Under the pieces are notes generated by a model. It ran no database searches. It was not told the origin of the DNA and saw only the letters and a list, made by a program, of their open reading frames with translations. From positions 1 through 26,200 of IMG/VR virus record IMGVR_UViG_3300045978_000235: a stretch of DNA of 26,200 nt; one strand, written 5' to 3'. The stretch is from a virus (lineage: Duplodnaviria > Caudoviricetes). This document shows, piece after piece, positions 2,054 to 25,630 of the stretch. Position numbers and translations under genes: made by a program. Numbering within the stretch: the stretch's first letter is position 1; every line of letters begins with the position of its first letter.

Positions 2054-3883
2054 ATGCTGGACCGCGCCTACGCGATCCTCGAAGTGAAGGCCTTTGACCT
2101 CGAGACCCGTACGATTACGGGCATCGCGGCCACCCCGACGCCAGACCGCCAGGGCGACATCTTCGAGCCGACCGGCGCCACCTTCGCGCGCGAGATTCCG
2201 CTGCTGCTGCACCACGACAAACAGCGTCCCGTCGGGGTGGCGCGCCTGTCCACCAGTCCAGGCGCAATTCTCTTTGAGGCCACCCTCGCGACGATTGAGA
2301 CCCCGGGACCCTTGCGCGAGCGGCTCGAGGAGACCTGGCAAAGTGTCAGAGCTGGTCTCCTGAAGGGGGTCTCGATTGGCTTCCGCGGGTTGTCGCAGGG
2401 CGTCAAGACGCTCAAGGCTGGCGGCCTGCATTTCCTGAAAACCGAAATCTGCGAGCTCTCGCTGGTCACCGTACCCGCGAACGTGGACGCCACCATTCTC
2501 ACCGTGAAATCGGCGGATGCGCCGTACTGCCAGGAGAAACGGATCATGACGACTGCTGAACAGATCACCGATTGCGAGAACCGGCGAGCGACCTGTGTCG
2601 CGCGGATGACCGCCATCCTGGACGATGAGAACCAGATGGACGAAGGGCGCCAGAAGGACTACGACGCGCTGCAAGTCGAGGTGGCTGATCTCGACGCGCG
2701 GCTGCCGCGCCTGCGCGCCTTCGAGAAAACCATGGCGGCGAGTGCGACACCGGTCGACATGGTGCTGTCGCCGGTGCGAACCACGACGGTGCCGACGCCC
2801 ATCATCCGCGTCAAGTCGAACGTGCAGCCGGGAACCGCGTTCGTGCGGTATTGCAAGGCCATGTTGGCCGCGAAGGGCAATCGGTTCGAGGCCATCGAAA
2901 TCGCCAAAGAATGGCGCGATACGCCGGAAGTCGAGCTGATTCTGCGTGCGGCCTCGGCGCCGGCCACGACGACGAATGTGCCCTGGGCCGGCGCACTCGT
3001 TCCGGGCCTGACGCATCTGGGCAGTGAGTTCATCGACATGCTGCGGCCGTCGACACTGCTCGGCCGCATCCCTGGCCTGAACGCGGTCCCGTTCAACGTG
3101 AAAGTCCCGCGACAGACCGCCGATGGCCTGGTCGCGTGGGTGGGCCAGGGCGCGCCCAAGCCGGTCTCGATGCTCGCCTTCGACAGCGTGTCGCTGGCCG
3201 AATACAAGATGGCCCAGATCCTGACGTTCACGCAGGAACTGGCGCGCAACAGCTCGCCGCGCGCCGAGGAAACCTTCCGCCGCGCCATGGTCGCGAAGAT
3301 GCAGCTGTTCATGGATCAGCAATTCATCGATCCGGCAGTGGCCGCGGTGGCCGGCGTGAATCCGGCGTCGATTACGAATGGCGTCACCGGCATTCCGGCT
3401 ACGGCCAATCCCCTGGTCGACATCGCCACCCTGCTGAACTCGTTTGTCACGGCCAATATTCCGCTGGACGGCGTGATGTTGCTGATGAGTCCGAGCAATG
3501 CGTTTGTGCTCAGCAATCGCCGCTCGGCCATGGGCGCGCCAGACTTCCCGTCCATCTCAATCAATGGCGGCTCGGTCGCTGGCGTCCCTGTCATCACATC
3601 GTCGGTGTGCGGCACTAACATCATCGGGCTGGTACCGAGTTACATCCTGTACGCCGATGACGGGGGCGTTCGCATCGATGTGTCGATAGAAGCATCGGTG
3701 CAGATGGTCGACAATCCCGGCACACCGGATGCGACCACGGTCTTTCGCTCGTTCTTTCAGGACAACCTGATCGGCCTGCGCGCCGAGCGATTCGTGGCTT
3801 GGGTCAAGGCGCACGCGAACGCCGTGAACATGATCACCAGCACCGCCTACGTACCCAACTTGGCGGAAGGGCCAGCCGTATAA
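2054..3883 (+). CDS. Fused prohead protease (HK97 family) and major capsid protein
   Basis: N-terminal ~150 aa has the protease motifs DRQGDI, PLLLHHD, GVSIGF and ELSLVTVPAN. A coiled-coil delta-like segment follows, then capsid motifs (AWVGQG..KP, FQDNLIGLRAERF). Confidence 0.92.
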   Translation: MLDRAYAILEVKAFDLETRTITGIAATPTPDRQGDIFEPTGATFAREIPLLLHHDKQRPVGVARLSTSPGAILFEATLATIETPGPLRERLEETWQSVRAGLLKGVSIGFRGLSQGVKTLKAGGLHFLKTEICELSLVTVPANVDATILTVKSADAPYCQEKRIMTTAEQITDCENRRATCVARMTAILDDENQMDEGRQKDYDALQVEVADLDARLPRLRAFEKTMAASATPVDMVLSPVRTTTVPTPIIRVKSNVQPGTAFVRYCKAMLAAKGNRFEAIEIAKEWRDTPEVELILRAASAPATTTNVPWAGALVPGLTHLGSEFIDMLRPSTLLGRIPGLNAVPFNVKVPRQTADGLVAWVGQGAPKPVSMLAFDSVSLAEYKMAQILTFTQELARNSSPRAEETFRRAMVAKMQLFMDQQFIDPAVAAVAGVNPASITNGVTGIPATANPLVDIATLLNSFVTANIPLDGVMLLMSPSNAFVLSNRRSAMGAPDFPSISINGGSVAGVPVITSSVCGTNIIGLVPSYILYADDGGVRIDVSIEASVQMVDNPGTPDATTVFRSFFQDNLIGLRAERFVAWVKAHANAVNMITSTAYVPNLAEGPAV

Positions 3884-9072: not shown

Positions 9073-11489
9073 TGGCGATCAGCGGCAGCGACAAGGCCTT
9101 GATGTACGCGCTCGGGGGCGTCATGCGCGGAGGCGCGTCACGGGGCGGGTATATCAACGGGTGTGTGTTCATCAATCTTAACGGGTTGCATGTCGGATGG
9201 GGGGCGTCGGACAACCGCTACCGGGTGCTTCTGGACTCGCTGACCATCACCGATGAACTGGACGAGGTCGCGAACCGCTGCACGTTCCGCGTGAAGGCGC
9301 CCATCGGCGGGACGCCCTTCACGACCGGCCGCGAAGTGATCATCACGCAAGGGTCGAAGAACAATCTGCAACGCCTGTTTGCCGGGTTTACGGTCGACGT
9401 CCGGCAATTCTATTTCGCGGACAATCCCGCGTTTCCGGGCGCCGAGCTCTCGGCGGTCGACTACACGTGGCAACTCAATTTCTCCAAGGTCACGAAACAG
9501 TACGTGAACAGTTCCGCGACGACGATCGCGAAAAACCTGATCGCGACCTACGCCGCCTCGAGCGGGTTCACGACCAACAACGTGGAGGATGACCTCCCAG
9601 TCCTCGATGAAATCACGTACACCGAAGAAGACCTCGGCACCGCTCTCACGCGCCTGGCCCGGCGCATCGGCGCGTACTGGTACGTCGACTATCTCCGCGA
9701 CATTCACCTGTTTTTTTCGGAAGTCCTGAACGGGTCGCCGGTCGACCTGACGCCCACGCATAAGAGCTTGGCGCATCTCACTTCGCAGCTCGATCATTCC
9801 CAATGCCTGACGCGCGTCTCCGTGGAAGGGCGGGGCAGTCGCCTCCTCAGCAACGTGCTGAAAGGCGACACGATGATCCCGCTCGAAGCGGTCGATATGT
9901 TCAAGGTTGCGCCGGATGTGTTCGTCAAGGCCGCGTTTCAAGGGAGCGTCGGCGGCGCGCAATATCTCAACTTCTCAGGCGTCGTGACCGGCGGGACCGG
10001 GACGCTTGTGGGTCCTGGCGTCACGCCGGCCAGTGCGCCGACGGTCGAACTGACGGCCGGGACCGGCATTGAGGCCGGCCGGCACGACTACGCCTACACC
10101 TGGGTCACAGCATCCGGCGAAACCAAACCATCCGCGATCGGGACCGTCACACATGGCGGGCCGATCACGACGCCAACGGTTGCGACGACCGCTCGAAATA
10201 ATCCTGATTCGACGCGAGCGGTCAACGAACTGCTCCCGGGCGCCTGGAAACCGGGTGATACCGTCGACTGGGCCTATACGTGGTCCCCGGAAGCGAACCC
10301 GGCCAGTAGCACACCGCTCAGCCCGATCGTGTCGCTCGTGGCTGTCGTCGCGAGTACGTACTGGAATTCGCCGGGACAATCGGCCCGGACGATGCTCGTC
10401 AAGGTGCAGTACACGGCTGACGCCAGAGCGAAAGAAGTCTATCTCTGGCACCGCGTGAACGGCGGCTCGTGGCGCTGCTGGAATTTTGGAGAACCCGTCG
10501 GCGGAGGCTATGACAACTACCCGAACCTCCCGCCTCCATTCGAGGCCGAGATGGCGTCACCGGAGTATTCCGACGTGATGACGCCGCCGGCGACCGGGAC
10601 CGCGTATCAACGCACGAATCTCAGCGGCATCGCTGTTGGTCCGACCGGGACCACTCAACGGAAGGTGTATCGCACGGCCGCGAATCTCTCACAACTGAAA
10701 CTCCTGCAAACGATCGCCAACAATACGGCGACGACCGCGACCGACAGCGCCGCGGATGCGACACTCGGCGCCAATGCGCCGACGGGCGACACGTCCACGC
10801 TGCCGCAACCGACCGGCCAGGCGAACCCCGGCGATAGCGAAATCCGCGTGGCGTCGACGGCGCCATTCAATGCGGCCGGCGGCTGGGCCATCATCGGCAA
10901 CGGCGAACAGGTGATTCGGTATACGGCGGTCGAAGTCCTGGGCACCCTCGCCGGCATTCCCCAAACAGGCATCGGCGCGATTACCGCAGCCGTGAACTAC
11001 GGAACCACGATTTCAGCGGCCCCGATGCTCACCGGCATCCCCTCAACCGGCGCGCGAGGTATTACGACACGCGAGCTCACGGCCGGCGATGAAATGTATG
11101 TCGTCGTCCAATCGGACGACACCGCGCGACAAGCAACCCTGGCCGCGGAAATGAAAACCGGCCCCGGCATCCGTGAAGAATGGGTGCAGGATCGGCGCCT
11201 GTCGATTCCTGAAGCGCGAGCTCGCGGGAAGGCGACGTTGGCCGCTCGGCCGCTCAATCAACAGACGATCGCGTATACCTGCCGCGACCTGCGAACCGCC
11301 GCGGGGAAAACGATTACGGTGAACCTGCCTGGGACGCCCACCAACCTGACCGGCACGTTCAAGATCCAAACGGTGACGATCGACAACTTCCGGCCGTACC
11401 CGAATCAGTTGCCGACCTTCACCGTGCAGGCGTCGAGCGCGCGGTTCAGCTTTGAAGATTTGCTCAGGGTCATGCGCCACAAGGAATAG
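9072..11489 (+). CDS. Tail tip/hub protein with inserted beta-sandwich domains
   Basis: Follows the tape measure. Hub-like motifs (LTITDELDE, LFAGF, WYVDYLRDIHLF) and a Thr/Gly-rich beta region with two YTW-containing modules. Confidence 0.7.
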   Translation: MAISGSDKALMYALGGVMRGGASRGGYINGCVFINLNGLHVGWGASDNRYRVLLDSLTITDELDEVANRCTFRVKAPIGGTPFTTGREVIITQGSKNNLQRLFAGFTVDVRQFYFADNPAFPGAELSAVDYTWQLNFSKVTKQYVNSSATTIAKNLIATYAASSGFTTNNVEDDLPVLDEITYTEEDLGTALTRLARRIGAYWYVDYLRDIHLFFSEVLNGSPVDLTPTHKSLAHLTSQLDHSQCLTRVSVEGRGSRLLSNVLKGDTMIPLEAVDMFKVAPDVFVKAAFQGSVGGAQYLNFSGVVTGGTGTLVGPGVTPASAPTVELTAGTGIEAGRHDYAYTWVTASGETKPSAIGTVTHGGPITTPTVATTARNNPDSTRAVNELLPGAWKPGDTVDWAYTWSPEANPASSTPLSPIVSLVAVVASTYWNSPGQSARTMLVKVQYTADARAKEVYLWHRVNGGSWRCWNFGEPVGGGYDNYPNLPPPFEAEMASPEYSDVMTPPATGTAYQRTNLSGIAVGPTGTTQRKVYRTAANLSQLKLLQTIANNTATTATDSAADATLGANAPTGDTSTLPQPTGQANPGDSEIRVASTAPFNAAGGWAIIGNGEQVIRYTAVEVLGTLAGIPQTGIGAITAAVNYGTTISAAPMLTGIPSTGARGITTRELTAGDEMYVVVQSDDTARQATLAAEMKTGPGIREEWVQDRRLSIPEARARGKATLAARPLNQQTIAYTCRDLRTAAGKTITVNLPGTPTNLTGTFKIQTVTIDNFRPYPNQLPTFTVQASSARFSFEDLLRVMRHKE

Positions 11490-13343: not shown

Positions 13344-13391
13344 TGGTGGACGGCGGGGGGATCGAACCCCCGACCTCGGCATTGCGAACGC
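13344..13391 (-). other. attP core: 3' half of tRNA-Ala (anticodon CGC)
   Basis: Reverse complement reads GCG-TTCGCAA-TGCCG-AGGTC-GGGGG-TTCGATC-CCCCC-GCCGTCC-A-CCA: anticodon loop, T-arm, U70, discriminator A and CCA. The 5' half is absent. Lies downstream of the integrase. Confidence 0.9.
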
Positions 13392-13954: not shown

Positions 13955-15052
13955 CTACCTGGCGACCTTCCGACCTTTGCCGGCCTTCCAGCCGACGGCT
14001 GCCAGCAGGTCCTTCTGCCTGACCTCGGTGTAAACCTTCAGCAGGACATCCGGTGTTTTCCAGTTGCCCAGATCCTGCACCACGGCCACCGGCACCTGGC
14101 GATCCAGCAGCAGCCGCGTGGCGCCGGTTTTCCTGGTGGCCGAGTGGAACACGATCCCACCCTCGAGCTGCCCGTACGGCACCTTCGCATCCGCGCACAG
14201 TTGCATCAGACGCTTACGGACAGCGCTCGGCCAGTCGCGTGGATTCATCGCGCGGCGGAATTTCTCGAAGTAGTACGGCGCGTCATGCCCGATGCGGTCC
14301 AGGGCAACAGCCGCGCGCGGCGAGAGCGGCACGCTGTGCGGCTCGCCATTCTTCGGATCCTTGATCCACAGCCACCGGCCATCACGGTCGGTGCGCTGCA
14401 GGTCCAGCAGGTCATTCAAGCGCACCAGCGTATCGATGCCCAGGATAAGCACCGCACGCTCCTGTGGATCGGTGGTGACCTTCAGCAGGCGCGACTCCTC
14501 ATCCGGCGTGAGCACACGCCGACGCAGCGGTACCGTCTTGAGCCGTTTCATGCCGGCCAGGGGATTGTTCTCGAGATAGCGCGGCACGGCATCGCGGAGC
14601 ATCGCCTTCAAAAAATCAACCTCACGATTGACCGTGGCATGCGACACGAACCGCTCGGTGCGCGGGATGCGTTGCTTGCGCCGGAAACTCCAGTACTGCC
14701 GTACGCGCGCCTGGTCAATCGTGGTCAGCCGATCATCAGCAAAGAACGTCAGCAGGCGCTGAACCAGGTCCCGTTCCCGGATGGCACCCTTGTGCGCGCT
14801 GATCGCATCCTCATATTCGACAGCGTACGCACTGAAGCGGATGGCTGGCCGCTCGAGGGCGATCTGATGGACCTGTTTGCCGCACTCGACCATGCGCCTG
14901 TGATAGAGCAGCTCGGCGAGTCGCTTGGAATCGTGGCGCTGCGACACCGTCGTGCCGATCAGGATTTTTGTGGATTCCTGCTGCGACCCTTTTCTGGCTG
15001 TGCCCAGCCACAGTTGCCAGTATGGCGATCCCTTTCGTTGAAACACTCCCAC
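13955..15052 (-). CDS. int: Tyrosine integrase
   Basis: N-terminal arm-binding segment, ATVNREVDFLKAML, catalytic R (TLVRLNDL), K (DPKNG), H..R (FHSATRKT), LGNW and Y (LKVY); close to the tRNA-derived attP. Confidence 0.95.
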   Translation of the reverse strand: MGVFQRKGSPYWQLWLGTARKGSQQESTKILIGTTVSQRHDSKRLAELLYHRRMVECGKQVHQIALERPAIRFSAYAVEYEDAISAHKGAIRERDLVQRLLTFFADDRLTTIDQARVRQYWSFRRKQRIPRTERFVSHATVNREVDFLKAMLRDAVPRYLENNPLAGMKRLKTVPLRRRVLTPDEESRLLKVTTDPQERAVLILGIDTLVRLNDLLDLQRTDRDGRWLWIKDPKNGEPHSVPLSPRAAVALDRIGHDAPYYFEKFRRAMNPRDWPSAVRKRLMQLCADAKVPYGQLEGGIVFHSATRKTGATRLLLDRQVPVAVVQDLGNWKTPDVLLKVYTEVRQKDLLAAVGWKAGKGRKVAR

Positions 15053-15204
15053 GTCAACTCATCCTTTCCCTGTCAGACATCCTCTTACAGACGTCATTAT
15101 TCGTTTGCATAGAAGTTACGTCGCGTCTAGGCTCTCTTTCTTTGCCGTCGTTCCGTAGTTGTCGCAAGCGGATAAAGGAGGCGTCGGCGTCATGGCTCAC
15201 CTGC

Positions 15205-15669
15205 CTAACCTCGCGCACGTTTGTTCCTGCCTGAGTCGTTTGGACCTCGCGTTCTATTCTCCAATCGCGTACCTGATTGTGCGGTGCGCGCGGCTTTCGC
15301 AGCCTTCTCGACCTTCCACACCTGCCGCAAAAACTGGATCGCGGCACGCTCGCCACCTGGCGAGAGCTCGCCGAGCATCCGCAAAAACCGGCCCTGCTTC
15401 CGCGTAAGCCCCGGCGCCGGCGGATAGAACATCTCGTGGGCGATCCGCAGGAGATCGTCAATCGTGGCGTGCATCCGCCCATTGAGGTACTGATTCAGCC
15501 AGCCCTGGCTGCGACCGATGCGGCCGGCCAGGGCCAGTTGATTGATGCGGTCCTGCTGCTTCTCGAGCAGGTACTGGAGATACGCGCGGAAGGCGCGATC
15601 TATGGGGTACTGCTGATTCATGCCCGGATCGTAACTGCTCCGTCGGCGTCGTGGGCGGTGTTTATTCAC
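15205..15669 (-). CDS. CI-like HTH repressor
   Basis: HTH INQLALAGRIGRSQGWLNQYLNGR; divergent from a Cro-like gene. Start is GTG 15669 or ATG 15621. No S24 peptidase domain is evident. Confidence 0.75.
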   Translation of the reverse strand: MNKHRPRRRRSSYDPGMNQQYPIDRAFRAYLQYLLEKQQDRINQLALAGRIGRSQGWLNQYLNGRMHATIDDLLRIAHEMFYPPAPGLTRKQGRFLRMLGELSPGGERAAIQFLRQVWKVEKAAKAARTAQSGTRLENRTRGPNDSGRNKRARG

Positions 15670-15675
15670 CAGAAT

Positions 15676-15704
15676 ATTTTATGCGAGACTTGACGTACGC
15701 GCAA
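15676..15704 (-). promoter_or_regulatory. Sigma70-type promoter for the repressor (TTGCGC-N17-TAAAAT)
   Basis: -35 at 15704-15699 and -10 at 15681-15676 on the minus strand; predicted start site falls at about GTG 15669. Confidence 0.6.
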
Positions 15705-15718
15705 CGGGAATATAAAAG
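15690..15718 (+). promoter_or_regulatory. Sigma70-type early promoter (TTGACG-N17-TAAAAG)
   Basis: -35 at 15690-15695 and -10 at 15713-15718; predicted start site falls at about ATG 15724. Confidence 0.55.
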
Positions 15719-15723
15719 AGGCC

Positions 15724-16023
15724 ATGCCCAAGAGGCCTCCAGACCCTAAGCTCATCTATACGATTCGCGTCCTTCGCGCCGCCTGTGGCTTGACCCAAAA
15801 GTCCTTGGCCGACAAGGCCGGCATGACCCAGACCCGCATCAGCCACATCGAACACGGCACGGTCGTCGCTCGGCGCACCGAGCGGCTGTGCATCGCCAAG
15901 GCGCTGGACGTGGCGCCGGAATCCATCGTCTGGCCGAAAGTCAAACTGACCGACCGGCAGCGCCTGCGCGAAGCCGCGCGCGAACGACGCCAGCAGGCCA
16001 GGATCGAGGCGCTCAGCTCATGA
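15724..16023 (+). CDS. Cro-like XRE-family HTH regulator
   Basis: IRVLRAACGLTQKSLADKAGMTQTRISHIEHG..IAKALDV. Confidence 0.9.
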   Translation: MPKRPPDPKLIYTIRVLRAACGLTQKSLADKAGMTQTRISHIEHGTVVARRTERLCIAKALDVAPESIVWPKVKLTDRQRLREAARERRQQARIEALSS

Positions 16024-16229
16024 CCAGCCCGTACCTCACCGCACGCGAGACCCTGGCGTACCTGAAGCTCGGTTCGCTCTCAGGCCTCTATCGGCTGGTG
16101 CGGGAGCATGACCTGCCGCACCTTCGGCGTGGCCGGCTGCTGCTGTTCGATGTGCGCGAGCTGGATGCCTGGCTGCATGGGCACGGCTCGAGCGTGGAGT
16201 GGGCGCGCGCGAAACGGCGCTCGGCGTGA
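16020..16229 (+). CDS. Excisionase-like HTH protein (69 aa)
   Basis: Start reassigned to ATG 16020 (ATGA overlap). YLTARETLAYLKL..LYRLVRE..LP..RRGRLLLFDVRELDAWL. Confidence 0.85.
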   Translation: MTSPYLTARETLAYLKLGSLSGLYRLVREHDLPHLRRGRLLLFDVRELDAWLHGHGSSVEWARAKRRSA

Positions 16230-16235
16230 AAGTCA

Positions 16236-16298
16236 GAGCGGTTCCAGGCAGTGATCCGGGAACCGCTCATCGAACGTCTGTGACGGATCAGGTCACAG
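16236..16298 (+). promoter_or_regulatory. Two inverted repeats in the leader of the RAMP-like gene
   Basis: GAGCGGTTCC/GGAACCGCTC (16236-16245/16259-16268) and CTGTGAC/GTCACAG (16278-16284/16292-16298). Confidence 0.55.
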
Positions 16299-16322
16299 CC
16301 TTAACCGGAAGGAGTGTTCAGT

Positions 16323-16961
16323 ATGGCACCAAGCGTGGCACGAAGCGAACCCATTGCGATTGGACCCGCGCCCACCAATGGCGGTAAAGCCGCGATTGAA
16401 TACGCGATTCCCTATGTCGCGGATGTCACCATCCAAGGCACGGCTGATCTCCTGTTCCATCGGTGGAACGTCGAAGGCGTCGAAACCAAAGCCCGCGCCG
16501 CGAAAGGATCCAAGGCCAAAAAATCCGACGACCTTGAAAGCTATGTCTACCGCAATCCAGCCGGCGAGCTCGCCGTGCCAGGTGAGTACCTGCGTCAAGC
16601 GGTGATTCATGCCGCGAAGTTTCGACAGGACCCACGCTCTCCGCGCAAGAGTGCGATGGATCTCTTTAAGGCCGGTGTCGTGTGTCTGACTCCGCTCGCG
16701 TCGCTGGGTGTACGTGATTGGGATTATGAGGATCGGCGTCGCGTGATGATTCAACGCAATGGCGTCACGCGCGTGCGTCCCGCCTTGCGCGCCGGTTGGT
16801 CTGTGGTCGTGCAGCTCATGGTGAATCTGCCTGAATACATCCCGCCTGATGCCTTGCAGGACGTGATCATGAATGCAGGCCGATTGATCGGGCTGGCAGA
16901 TTTTCGACCGACGTATGGTCGCTTCACGATTCAGCATTTCGAGATCGTATTGCCCGAATAA
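16323..16961 (+). CDS. Stand-alone RAMP/Cas7-like protein (212 aa), candidate VIPR-type effector
   Basis: RBS AAGGAG 8 nt before ATG 16323. First strand VTIQGTADLLFH, RAMP-like LAVPGEYLRQAVIHAA, thumb-like RVMIQRNGVTRVRP, C-terminal Gly-rich loop AGRLIGLADFRPTYGRF. No other cas genes in the window. Confidence 0.7.
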   Translation: MAPSVARSEPIAIGPAPTNGGKAAIEYAIPYVADVTIQGTADLLFHRWNVEGVETKARAAKGSKAKKSDDLESYVYRNPAGELAVPGEYLRQAVIHAAKFRQDPRSPRKSAMDLFKAGVVCLTPLASLGVRDWDYEDRRRVMIQRNGVTRVRPALRAGWSVVVQLMVNLPEYIPPDALQDVIMNAGRLIGLADFRPTYGRFTIQHFEIVLPE

Positions 16962-16962
16962 A

Positions 16963-17650
16963 GCCGTGGTGAGGTGAGTCCGGCCATGGTCTGCTTCGGT
17001 ATTGGTACGCAGAGCTCTGGTCTGGCGAGCTCGGGAATGGTCCGCCTATGGTGAGTTGCGCTGCGGTAAGCCTTGGTGCGGTCCGGTGGGCTGGGGTATG
17101 GGCGGGGCGTGGTAGTAGTCCGCCTTGGTAGGGTATGGCCCGCTGCAGGTGGAGCCTGGTCTGGTCAGGTCGGTTATGCCGTTGCTGCGGTCAGGTCAGC
17201 TGTGGTGGTGGTCCGGTCAGCCTTGGTTCGCTATGGCTAGGTGGGGCGTGCACCGGCGTGGCTAGTTCTGGTTTAGTTCGCTCTGGTTTGGTTCGCTCTG
17301 GCGCGGCCAGTTGGAGCTCGGTGGGGTATGGTCCGCACAGGTTTGGCAAGGCTGGGCGCTGGTTTGGTCCGCTTCGGCAAGTATTGGTCTGCATTGGTAG
17401 GCCAAGGTCGGTACGGGTGCGGTTCGGTTCGGCGGGGTGTGCTCAGGAATGCTTCGGTGGGCTAGGTTTCGGCTCGGAATGGCCGAGCACGGTGGGGTGT
17501 GGTCCGCTTAGGTACGGCACGCGGTGGTTGGGTCGGTCATGGCGTGGTCGGGCGAGTCGGGGTCGGGTTTGCTCCGGTGCTCTCCGCTATGGTCAGGTCT
17601 GGTTCGCTAAGGTCAGGTGCGGTGTGCAGGGGTTTGCTGTGGTGAGGTCC
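16963..17650 (+). ncRNA. Phased pentamer array (GGY-NN/GCT-NN), about 136 units; candidate guide RNA
   Basis: Manual parse gives 5-nt periodicity across the whole intergenic gap with 8 single-nt slips. In 17421-17650, 44 of 46 units start with G, 29 with GGY and 8 with GCT; positions 4-5 vary freely. The repeat is directly seen; the RNA role is inferred. Confidence 0.8.
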
Positions 17651-17651
17651 C

Positions 17652-18386
17652 ATGAATCGCTCTGAGAGTCTCGCCGCCCTCAGTCTCGCCCTCGCGAAAG
17701 CGCAATTACAAATAGAGTTTGCGGCGAAAGACAGCTCGAATCCCCACTACGGCAGCCACTATGCCGATCTCAGTTCCATCTGGAGTGCCTGCCGCGGACC
17801 CCTCGCCGCCAACGAGCTCGCCATCATCCAGCTGCCCTCCGCCGACGGCAACCTGGTCCGCATGACCACGCTGCTGCTGCACTCGAGCGGCGAATGGCTC
17901 GAATCCGATGTCCTCCAGGTGCAGGCGCGCGACGCGAACCCCCAGGCCATCGGCAGCTGCCTCACGTACCTGCGTCGGTACCAGCTCGCCGCCATTGTCG
18001 GCGTGGCGCCGACCGACAGTGACGATGATGCCGAAGCCGCGGAAGGGAAGCCGCGCGTCGTGCCGGCGAATATCGATCCGAAAACCGGCGAGGAGGTGGG
18101 CGAGCTCAGTACCCTCCCAACCGGCTGGCACTACCTCTCCGACTACCAGCAGCATGGGCCCTGGCACGAATGGCGCGTCTTGAAATGGGACGGCCAAGGC
18201 GGCTCGCTGAAAGTGTCCACCAAGCTGTCGAAGATTGCCGACGATGCCAGGCGCGCCTACGACGCCCATCTGCCGGTGAAACTCGAGGTCAAGCTGAAAC
18301 CGAACAATCCCGGCGAAGCGTACCTGAACGGCGTGCGCGTGATGACCCCGGATGATGTGGTGCCCAGTGACAATATTCCATTCTGA
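17652..18386 (+). CDS. ERF-family single-strand annealing protein
   Basis: ALAKAQ..AAKDSSNPHYGSHYADL, TLLLHSSGEWLES and QAIGSCLTYLRRYQLAAIVGV..DDDAE; C-terminal DNIPF. Confidence 0.92.
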   Translation: MNRSESLAALSLALAKAQLQIEFAAKDSSNPHYGSHYADLSSIWSACRGPLAANELAIIQLPSADGNLVRMTTLLLHSSGEWLESDVLQVQARDANPQAIGSCLTYLRRYQLAAIVGVAPTDSDDDAEAAEGKPRVVPANIDPKTGEEVGELSTLPTGWHYLSDYQQHGPWHEWRVLKWDGQGGSLKVSTKLSKIADDARRAYDAHLPVKLEVKLKPNNPGEAYLNGVRVMTPDDVVPSDNIPF

Positions 18387-21325: not shown

Positions 21326-22906
21326 ATGTCTCTTCCGATTGTTCCCGGCGGCGAAGGCTACGCAATGTCCATGCGCGCCGCCTACGGTCAAGCCGGTGTC
21401 GCACCAGCCATCCTGCGCGTGACCACCCTGGCTGACCGTGGCGCCGGCTCGCTCCGCGAAGCCCTCGAGACCACCACGCCGCGCGTGATCATCTTCGAGA
21501 TCAGCGGAACCATTGCCCTCGAGAGCGACATCCGCTTGGTCTCGCCGTTTGTCACCGTGGCCGGCCAGACCGCGCCATCGCCAGGGATCCTGATCCGCAA
21601 CTTCGGCATCAGCATCACGACGCACGATGTGTTCTTACAACATCTCCGCATTCGCGCCGGTGATGGTCCGCCCTTTTTGACGCCGACAGCGGACCATGAT
21701 GGGCTGAGCCTGTACTACGACGGCGTCTTCAACGTCGTCGTGGACCATTGCTCGATCAGCTGGGCGGCAGGCAAGTCATCCAGCGTCTACAACATCGCTG
21801 ACGAGGGCGAGGTCTGTTACTGGCAGAACATCCTGAGTGAAGCCCTGCTCTACGCGAAAAACTGCGATTGGGGCGCGCCCGATGCCGCCGGTGTCGGTCC
21901 CTCGAGTCTCGCCCTGCTGCTGAAGCAGAGCGAAGCCGGTGTGCCGAGCTACGTATCCCTGCTCGGCAATCTGTTCGCACACTGCGCCGCGCGCAATCCT
22001 GAAATTCAGGGGCCGGTGCATCTGCAGATGGTGAACAACGTCGTGTATGACTGGGGGAAAGATGACCGGGACAGCTATCAGTGGGCGACGCTCACGTACG
22101 GCATCAGTGGGGAGGCGCCGCCCAAGCTCGCCATCGTCGGCAATGTCTACAAGGCTGGCCCTGGTCCGCATCCCTTCACGCCGTTGTACGCGGTGGGCGA
22201 GTGGAGTGCCGTGGATGGCTCCGAGCTCTACCTCCACGACAACCGCTGTGATGGTGCTGAGCCATACTTCACGAACCATGTGGATCATCGAGTGACCGCA
22301 CCGCCGGTGCCTATTCAGGATCTGAGTATCCTGCCCTCGAGCGAGGTGGAAGCGAGTGTGCTGGCGCGTGCCGGTTGTCGTCCTGCTGATCGTGATAGCG
22401 TGGATCGCCGAATCATCCAGGAAGTCCAGGCACGGACTGGGACCGTCATCAGCAGCCAGGATCAAGTCGGCGGCTGGCCGGCTCTGGCGTCGGCGACGCG
22501 CGCCCTGACCGTCCCTGCCGATCCCCACACCCTGCAACCGAGCGGTTATACCGCCTTGGAAGAATGGCTGCACACCTATGCACGCGAAGTTGAAGGCGCT
22601 ACCCCAGTCGTGCGAGCGGAAGTCGCCTTCGACTATCGCGAGGAGGATCTGATGCGCTACAAGGTCACGCACTTCGAGGGCTCTTGGAATGAGGCACCCT
22701 TCGAGCTGCTGCACGCCAAAGAAGTCACGCTGCCCGACACACCAGCCGGCAGCAAGTCCTACACCGTGACGCCACCACCAGGCGCCCGAACATTCGCCGT
22801 CCGCGCGGCGAATGTGAAGGGTGGTGGTGTGGCGTCCAGCTTTTCCGTGATGACGGTTCCGCTGGTCCCGCCGCAACAGGTGCGGATCATCTCGAGCGTG
22901 CGATGA
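21326..22906 (+). CDS. Pectate lyase-like (PL1-type beta-helix) protein with C-terminal FN3-like domain
   Basis: RBS AGGAG. PGGEGYA, VTTLADRGAGSLREAL, PRVIIFEISGTIAL, TVAGQTAPSPGI, VVVDHCSISW and ARNP motifs. Confidence 0.85.
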   Translation: MSLPIVPGGEGYAMSMRAAYGQAGVAPAILRVTTLADRGAGSLREALETTTPRVIIFEISGTIALESDIRLVSPFVTVAGQTAPSPGILIRNFGISITTHDVFLQHLRIRAGDGPPFLTPTADHDGLSLYYDGVFNVVVDHCSISWAAGKSSSVYNIADEGEVCYWQNILSEALLYAKNCDWGAPDAAGVGPSSLALLLKQSEAGVPSYVSLLGNLFAHCAARNPEIQGPVHLQMVNNVVYDWGKDDRDSYQWATLTYGISGEAPPKLAIVGNVYKAGPGPHPFTPLYAVGEWSAVDGSELYLHDNRCDGAEPYFTNHVDHRVTAPPVPIQDLSILPSSEVEASVLARAGCRPADRDSVDRRIIQEVQARTGTVISSQDQVGGWPALASATRALTVPADPHTLQPSGYTALEEWLHTYAREVEGATPVVRAEVAFDYREEDLMRYKVTHFEGSWNEAPFELLHAKEVTLPDTPAGSKSYTVTPPPGARTFAVRAANVKGGGVASSFSVMTVPLVPPQQVRIISSVR

Positions 22907-24012: not shown

Positions 24013-24246
24013 ATGGAACGCCGTGAATTAATGAAACTCGCGAGTGCCTTTGCGCTATTGGGTGTCCAAGGCAAGTTATCCACCCTCGAGGCGAGTACGC
24101 GCCCAGTGCTCGCTATTCTTGAAGTGGATTCGCCTGTGCCTAGCGAGATCGCGCAGCAGATGCATACGCAGATGCAGTCTCGTCAGTCACGGCTCGCTCC
24201 CACTATAGCAGCGAGAGCACCGAGGAGGAAAGAGCGAGCACCATGA
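24013..24246 (+). CDS. Hypothetical protein with twin-arginine-like N-terminus
   Basis: RBS GGGGAG; MERRELMKLASAFALLG. Confidence 0.55.
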   Translation: MERRELMKLASAFALLGVQGKLSTLEASTRPVLAILEVDSPVPSEIAQQMHTQMQSRQSRLAPTIAARAPRRKERAP

Positions 24247-24787: not shown

Positions 24788-24905
24788 GAGCGAGCCGATC
24801 CAGTTGACCGACACGACAAGTGCGAGCGAGCCGAGTTCGACGTGAGGACCGTTGCAGCCGAGCGAGCCGGACTCAGGGAGAGGACCGAACGAAACAGAGC
24901 GATTG
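24788..24905 (+). repeat. TIGR-like dual-repeat mini-array (3 units, 36-nt period)
   Basis: GAGCGAGCCG at 24788, 24824 and 24860, degenerate at 24897. Second repeat GACCGACACG/GTGAGGACCG/GAGAGGACCG at 24806, 24842 and 24878. Variable segments are 8-9 nt. Confidence 0.75.
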
Positions 24906-25283: not shown

Positions 25284-25623
25284 AAGCGAGCCGTGGTACT
25301 TGAGAGCACCTGGTAGGTGGAGCGAGCCGTGGCGTTGGAGAGCACCGCCCGATAAGAGCGAGCCGTCAAGATGGAGAACACCGTCACCCCTAGAGCGAGT
25401 CGAGTTGGACGAGGGCACCGGAGTCGAAGAGCGAGCCGGCGAACCGGAGAGCACCGAGTATCGTGATCGAGTTGAGTATTGGGAGGGGGACCAATTGCGT
25501 GGAGCGAGCCGTGGTATTGGAAAGCGCACCGATGGCGGGCGAGCGCAAGCCGCGTACGTAGAGAGCACCGAGCGGTTGGAGCGAGCCGTGTATGCCGAGA
25601 GCACCGCAGGAAGTGGAGCGCCA
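25284..25623 (+). repeat. TIGR-like dual-repeat array (9 units, ~36-nt period)
   Basis: Repeat A GAGCGAGCCG (some copies degenerate) at 25284, 25320, 25356, 25393, 25429, 25465, 25502, 25541, 25579 and partial 25616. Repeat B GAGAGCACCG at 25302, 25338, 25374, 25411, 25447, 25483, ~25521, 25561 and 25597. Variable segments are mostly 8 nt. Confidence 0.85.
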
Positions 25624-25630
25624 AAACAAC

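Follow-up and report, generated by a model that had tools for sequence, protein, structure and literature searches.

What does a phage carry in a single small gene whose stop codon is followed by 688 nt of DNA repeating every five letters, and what do these letters spell? The original prediction, made from the letters of the DNA, described this locus as a candidate RNA-guided system laid out like the VIPR systems of phages, in which a lone Cas7/RAMP-like protein would bind an array of GGY-NN pentamers and the NN positions would encode a gapped DNA target in rival phages or host genes. The window, i.e., the whole stretch of 26,200 nt that we analyzed, corresponds to positions 1-26,200 of the IMG/VR record IMGVR_UViG_3300045978_000235, an 85% complete virus record. 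Domain and profile searches identified a terminase, a protease-capsid gene, a portal, a tyrosine integrase, two HTH regulators, and an HTH_17 excisionase; the window belongs to a temperate HK97-type phage, from soil. The locus and its neighbors are organized as follows:

13955 to 16023, mixed strands: integrase module, with a tyrosine integrase (-), a repressor-like HTH gene (-), and a Cro-like HTH gene (+)
16020 to 16229, + strand: the phage's own excisionase gene (xis, HTH_17), which the array does not match
16230 to 16322, + strand: leader between xis and vipr, with two hairpins
16323 to 16961, + strand: vipr gene, 212 aa from its ATG, a stand-alone RAMP with a predicted Cas7/Csm3-like fold
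16963 to 17650, + strand: vrRNA-type array of 688 nt and 136 units, unbroken, without tail, spacer, or ribozyme
17644 to 17648, + strand: Shine-Dalgarno-like GAGGT of the ERF gene, made by the final two array units
17652 to 18386, + strand: ERF single-strand annealing gene, the next gene in the operon

The array begins 1 nt past the vipr stop codon and stops 1 nt short of the ERF ATG (17652), so that the coordinates and our parse bear out what had been predicted, i.e., a 212-aa frame and about 136 units lying 1 nt off each gene. Parsed by dynamic programming, it is made of 136 units, of which 128 have 5 nt and eight have 6 nt, none being shorter; the eight 6-nt units all lie within 16998-17360, and the final 58 units share one register. 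The original prediction mentioned neither these register shifts nor the separate 18/36-nt-period array described below. The triplets are GGT (63), GGC (20), GCT (20), GCC (8), GCA (5), GTT (5), and others (15), which gives 83 GGY and 53 non-GGY triplets among the 136, and all 16 NN dinucleotides are present. GCT, GCC, and GCA together account for 33/136 triplets in the window vs 208/3542 in the arrays of homologues. The identity at period 5 reaches 0.438, vs 0.304 +/- 0.016 in shuffled sequences (maximum 0.358, n = 1000), and the claim that such a period argues against coding stands. When the period-5 scan was repeated over the window, no second pentamer tract was found, and the array showed no unusual folding (z 0.02, with 20 shuffles only). 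We also observed that triplets starting with GC follow an NN ending in CC in 7 of 11 cases in the window array, vs 9 of 156 in homologues, which possibly reflects an avoidance of CCGG sites.

The protein encoded upstream has a single significant sequence match in the PDB, the Vipr of phage SUSP1 (36pp_D), with an E-value of 1.3e-5 from the single sequence and of 7.6e-17 with a profile of 123 sequences (residues 5-190). In SUSP1 Vipr, H17, R138, D177, W178, and R179 are described as holding GGY in the part of the preprint available to us (10.64898/2026.04.26.720927). Our alignments pair them with H46, R152, D193, F194, and R195 of the window protein; hence H46, R152, D193, and R195 are identical to the contact residues, W178 being replaced by F194, and R152, D193, and R195 are kept in at least 90% of the 123 homologues. 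A structure model based on the alignment (pLDDT 94) has Csm3, Cmr, and Cas7 chains as its top fold matches (Foldseek E 8e-8, TM about 0.5), and its superposition on RAMP chains gives a Z of 11.6 and an rmsd of 3.7 over 157 aligned residues; a fold from the single sequence was dropped (pLDDT 38). Both the Cas7/RAMP-like nature of the protein and the resemblance to phage VIPR thus held up. No Pfam or PADLOC match was obtained for the protein, and PHROGs returned one unnamed family only. From these matches and the model, we take the 212-aa protein to be a Vipr homologue with a predicted RAMP fold (RRM core, thumb, and G-loop). The family is large, with 6891 matches among 7311 candidates and 1076 representatives at 50% clustering. 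One member, 64% identical to the window protein, is encoded at 2465-3082 of phage DSL-LC04 (OR003939.1; L185), possibly a relative in culture; it is annotated there as a helix-turn-helix regulator, an annotation that is probably wrong.

As had been predicted of homologues, similar arrays lie beside their genes: a pentamer array was found no more than 3 kb from vipr in 53 of 54 homologous IMG/VR viral loci, the exception being L050, without a detectable GGY array. The deduplicated set contains 73 arrays, that of the window included, with a median of 46 units, and 55 of them have at least 30 units. Register-shifted units across the 73 arrays amount to 121 of six nt vs 24 of four nt. We considered that the extra base of the 6-nt units could be a retained wobble base; this was unsupported (T 48, C 33, G 26, A 14), the side of the extra base being ambiguous. 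The nearest relatives mostly carry two arrays, an upstream one ending in a hairpin and a downstream one; the window keeps the downstream array only, which is among the longest of the set. Its leader (16230-16322) stands where the closest homologues carry the upstream array plus hairpin, and folds with a z of -2.4, 4/200 shuffles being equally good. A conserved GC-rich hairpin is located between the upstream array and the vipr ribosome site in L001, L002, L004, L005, L006, L010, L011, and L013, and could be a tail, a terminator, or a translation control. GAGG terminates 18 of 38 downstream arrays, the window's counted. In two other loci, arrays are opposite in strand to vipr or 1.7 kb off (L037, 3302-3386, - strand; L032, 2956-3251, + strand). 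The genes flanking vipr vary among homologues and are often recombination genes; recombination genes aside, no shared accessory gene was found among 32 flanking ORFs of the first 29 loci. Judged by gene order, ERF is not a conserved Vipr partner, the neighbors of the homologues being different.

The NN pairs of the array were decoded by the published rule, i.e., with one base skipped between successive pairs (10.64898/2026.04.26.720920). The array then divides as follows:

16968 to 17043, + strand: guide stretch 1, with 15 units, extended to at most 17 in the profile match; reads as the 5' portion of alpA, in sense
17055 to 17480, + strand: about 86 of the 136 units, for which no target was found
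17481 to 17645, + strand: guide stretch 2, with 33 units in a row; reads as the central portion of alpA, in sense

When IMG/VR was searched with a 10-unit pattern taken from the 3' end of the array, the one exact match fell within an AlpA gene (PF05930, E 2.5e-9). A profile of 36 relatives of the encoded protein then flagged stretch 1, at the other end of the array, as an independent second match, with 40 bits vs 22.6 for the best of 1000 shuffles. A broad profile, built from 55 other AlpA sequences, gave 57.6 bits for stretch 2 (maximum of 21.9 in 1000 shuffles) and just 19.2 bits for stretch 1, with 5/1000 shuffles higher. Both stretches align in frame with alpA, the skipped base being the wobble base, and the match of stretch 1 continues across the 6-nt unit at 16998. 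Against a separate alpA locus (L107), stretch 1 matches at 27/30 NN bases with a skip of 1 nt, vs 20, 20, and 20 with skips of 0, 2, and 3 nt. At six other alpA loci, the 1-nt skip gave 24, 22, 23, 21, 20, and 21 bases vs 19-21 for other skips; thus, it is clearly the best at two of the seven loci (L106 and L107), weakly so at L109, and not at the other four. When we scanned 1.19 Mb from 162 records, a set enriched for alpA loci by design, in which L056/L077 had been chosen by one of the patterns and from which 14 loci coming from excisionase-like pattern matches were left out, all eight diagonals with at least 21/24 bases fell on in-frame alpA genes, and four shuffles gave none. The best self match of the array is 19/24, the background level, the phage's own xis included: the array spares the phage's own genome. 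No perfect full-length target was found, the best matches being 27/30 and 32/34 bases, and an exact 9-unit search of IMG/VR with stretch 1 returned no match. The NN code is matched to real DNA for about 50 of the 136 units.

Judged from these sequence matches, the array reads, with two bases taken and one skipped, as alpA genes that belong to other phages or integrated elements. The prediction of a gapped DNA target encoded by the NN positions was thus supported, the alpA matches at a 1-nt gap exceeding those of shuffles; in the proposed search of phage and self genomes with the NN pairs, alpA was matched and the phage's own genome was not. The predicted choice of victims stood in part, since alpA of other phages and integrated elements was found, but no host-gene target for the decoded array. 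Because both stretches have the same sense as the alpA message, they do not pair with it, and it is the DNA that must be read.

Some other candidate targets were tried and abandoned. By eye, the units near 17390-17480 could be read as the beginning of an HTH_17 excisionase gene, in antisense. This reading is unsupported: a first search gave no match, and of 12 later matches in metagenomes, 11 lie in one recurring, unrelated enzyme gene and none extends into the flanks. This enzyme is presumably DusC-like. Two viral matches of the same pattern did not extend either, and xis profiles gave no signal at all. An XRE-like gene in L050 matched at 9/12, near background.

The choice of alpA is not particular to the window. 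The AlpA profile applied to 146 array strands identified nine segments of at least 25 bits in eight arrays, each above 500/500 shuffles. Seven of the 72 homologue arrays have an AlpA match, four in sense (L001, L005, L009, and L010), as is the case twice in the window, and three in antisense (L011, L021, and L022). That alpA is matched on either strand speaks for a DNA target. The phage of L011 has an alpA gene of its own, which is absent from the matches of its guide; these matches, at 30/44 bases or more, are all alpA genes, in three other phages. The matches extend over 33 units in the window and 41 in L021, the others covering just 12-23 units. Among the 12 units of 6 nt that lie inside AlpA matches, 10 are flanked on each side by more than 7 bits of match, and the 41-unit match of L021 contains three of these ten. 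Since the matches continue through 10 of 12 shifts, register shifts do not mark target changes.

In L107, the gene order is integrase, repressor-like gene, small cro-like ORF, alpA, and replication initiator, and its alpA holds the same place as the window's own, unmatched HTH_17 gene. L056 had been considered as a capsid-forming satellite, an idea that we dropped since the record also holds tail genes: it is a tailed-phage fragment. In L077 (G001), alpA (9328-9606) lies head to head in a tailed-phage packaging module, between the terminase small subunit and the portal, far from any integrase. AlpA is described, in the accessible part of PMC6092414, as required for induction and transfer of an E. 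coli PICI. A literature search combining VIPR and AlpA returned no paper naming alpA as a target; AlpA as a VIPR target is absent from the text and supplement legends of 10.64898/2026.04.26.720920, whose target tables may hold it, and AlpA and excisionase have no mention in the accessible portion of the main text of 10.64898/2026.10.15.759431. Temperate soil phages appear to use alpA targeting to keep rivals locked in the chromosome. This targeting recurs independently and on both strands, which singles out alpA as the gene class concerned.

The remainder of the window was examined for other elements. No cas model of PADLOC matched any of the 24 window proteins, Rfam gave no match in the window, hammerhead included, and no CRISPR array was detected in the window of this 85% complete record; the original prediction had likewise seen neither a CRISPR array nor another cas gene. 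No sigma-70 promoter was found near the array. The region is intact, on single contigs and with no difference, in two DNA runs that may be the source of the window DNA, and no array variant was observed across four DNA runs. In four metatranscriptome runs, the contigs are evenly covered; these runs may contain DNA and are no evidence of transcription. Near the integrase, the 3' half of a tRNA-Ala(CGC) is located at 13344-13391 (- strand), between two 21-nt direct repeats (13196 and 13438), and is a probable attP core; its identity to tRNA-Ala(CGC) genes is at most 96% in a search that covered a sample of one phylum. A pectate-lyase-like gene of 526 aa (21326-22906, + strand, PHROG E 1.7e-27) is likely a moron. 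A second array (25284-25625, + strand), not related to the pentamer array, has an 18/36-nt period and about 14 repeats, the register slipping in places, with two short repeats alternating with variable 7-9-nt spacers; stray copies of these repeats are found at 24213-24240 and 24788-24885. Its layout is similar to that of a dual-repeat TIGR array, its flanking motifs being unlike the box C/D sets of TIGR as given in the accessible part of 10.64898/2026.09.09.750476. No Tas gene was recognized in the window, and this second array was unmatched among 50,697 phage records.

We consider it probable that the locus is a phage VIPR silencing the alpA genes of rivals, in which Vipr-coated array RNA would bind alpA DNA and block its transcription, so that rivals could not excise. 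The array would be transcribed within an early cro-xis-vipr-erf message, from which tail-less pieces of guide size would be trimmed, the 6-nt units being tolerated as bulges. By analogy with the work on SUSP1, one Vipr protomer would bind each pentamer, GGY being held by the protein and NN paired to one DNA strand, and alpA would be repressed without cutting. Once alpA is blocked, rival prophages or satellites would be kept from excising, and the block would also shut the replication genes located downstream of alpA.

Other readings of the same array have to be weighed against alpA silencing by trimmed guides. The array might stay uncut, a stretch of 33-41 units forming one long filament over 100-120 bp of alpA. 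The contiguous matches of the window and of L021 would fit it, as would the absence of any tail, ribozyme, or repeat to cut at and the length of at least 30 units in 55 of the 73 arrays. We find it unlikely, because the characterized vrRNAs have 9-16 repeats and their filaments up to 12 subunits in the sources as far as accessible, because one array holds several targets, because the RNA must leave the vipr and erf message, and because the remaining AlpA matches cover 12-23 units only. One can also ask whether the array is decaying, its formerly working guides being now mostly inactive through non-GGY triplets. The excess of GCT, GCC, and GCA over homologues, the loss of the upstream array that close relatives possess, and the observation that GGY perturbation abolished silencing in SUSP1 (10.64898/2026.04.26.720920) speak for such a decay. 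But the NN code has kept its sharpness, no deletion disturbs the register, and vipr is intact with its key residues; moreover, the departures are mainly G to C at position 2, which is not among the changes tested for SUSP1, and the accessible part of 760802 reports non-canonical repeats next to Vipr proteins. Decay thus seems quite improbable.

A role in cis would have Vipr bind the array in its own message, mask the ribosome site that serves the following gene, and tune the recombination genes. It could draw on the Shine-Dalgarno-like site of erf built by the final units, on the GAGG that ends 18 of the 38 downstream arrays, and on the recombination gene that is often next; however, it does not account for the alpA sequences encoded, on both strands, by the NN pairs of several phages, and the overlap may just reflect a compact genome, which makes this role very improbable. 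Finally, there is practically no chance that the tract is a low-complexity protein gene or a chance repeat: a 176-aa open frame does overlap it (17135-17665), but it has no PHROG or PADLOC match, the period of 5 comes with +1 shifts, and the NN are hypervariable among homologues, with decodable targets.

The tail-less arrays raise the further question of how guides are written. In the accessible parts of the main VIPR preprints, vrRNA guide acquisition and the excision of guides from continuous arrays are not addressed. The window array probably has the same architecture as the staggered vrRNA arrays of fig. S18 in 10.64898/2026.04.26.720920, which, as far as that figure's legend goes, are like it continuous with 1-nt register offsets. 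This legend places the vrRNA boundaries at the 1-nt offsets, unlike what we observed, since the alpA matches cross 10 of 12 offsets and the last 58 window units are offset-free yet reach beyond the alpA match. Read-through and boundaries at offsets both hold only if neighboring guides tile one gene gaplessly, and such a gapless tiling would imply that a single piece of target served as the source of these guides. Matches of 33-41 codons that ignore the shifts point to long filaments or to adjacent guides copied from one target stretch. We tentatively raise the possibility, which we regard as doubtful, that a single event produces a tail-less array by recoding a long segment of a rival's gene, giving very long or self-tiling alpA guides of 33-41 units; each third base would be converted to GGY, with occasional one-base slips. 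If this is true, the arrays would be direct records of the VIPR acquisition step and would offer a ready multiplex silencer from one 212-aa protein. The locus and its relatives make guide acquisition and processing testable, and a system of one gene, with no tail and no accessory protein, would be the simplest form to engineer.

The locus is a VIPR, a system already published, and it presents all the VIPR features that could be tested. VIPR has been described in 2026 preprints (10.64898/2026.04.26.720920, 10.64898/2026.04.26.720927, and 10.64898/2026.10.15.759431), here taken from their accessible parts. Like type II VIPR (SUSP1 and a Pseudomonas fulva prophage), it has the same Vipr contact residues, GGY/NN pentamers, a phage-borne location, a 1-nt skip on the wobble base, and no cas genes, and it targets competing elements without self-match. 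Unlike type II VIPR, it has no vap gene, the neighbors of vipr being xis and erf, whereas SUSP1 VIPR needs vap1 against its satellite, according to the accessible portion of the source. Moreover, the window array has no 3' tail or pseudoknot, consists of one array of 136 units instead of separate tailed RNAs of 9-16 units, contains many GCY triplets, and gives matches of up to 33 units. With the Cas7/Csm3 backbones of Class 1 CRISPR, type IV and type VII included, the protein shares a predicted RAMP fold, thumb, and G-loop; it differs from them by the lack of a CRISPR array or further cas gene, by a pairing that is gapped and not contiguous, and by an identity of 9-16%. The closest likeness in purpose is with SUSP1 VIPR acting on F5 satellites, where, in the available text of 10.64898/2026.10.15.759431, the step at which a rival leaves the chromosome is targeted as well, through the excision recombinase in that case and through the AlpA regulator/excisionase gene here.
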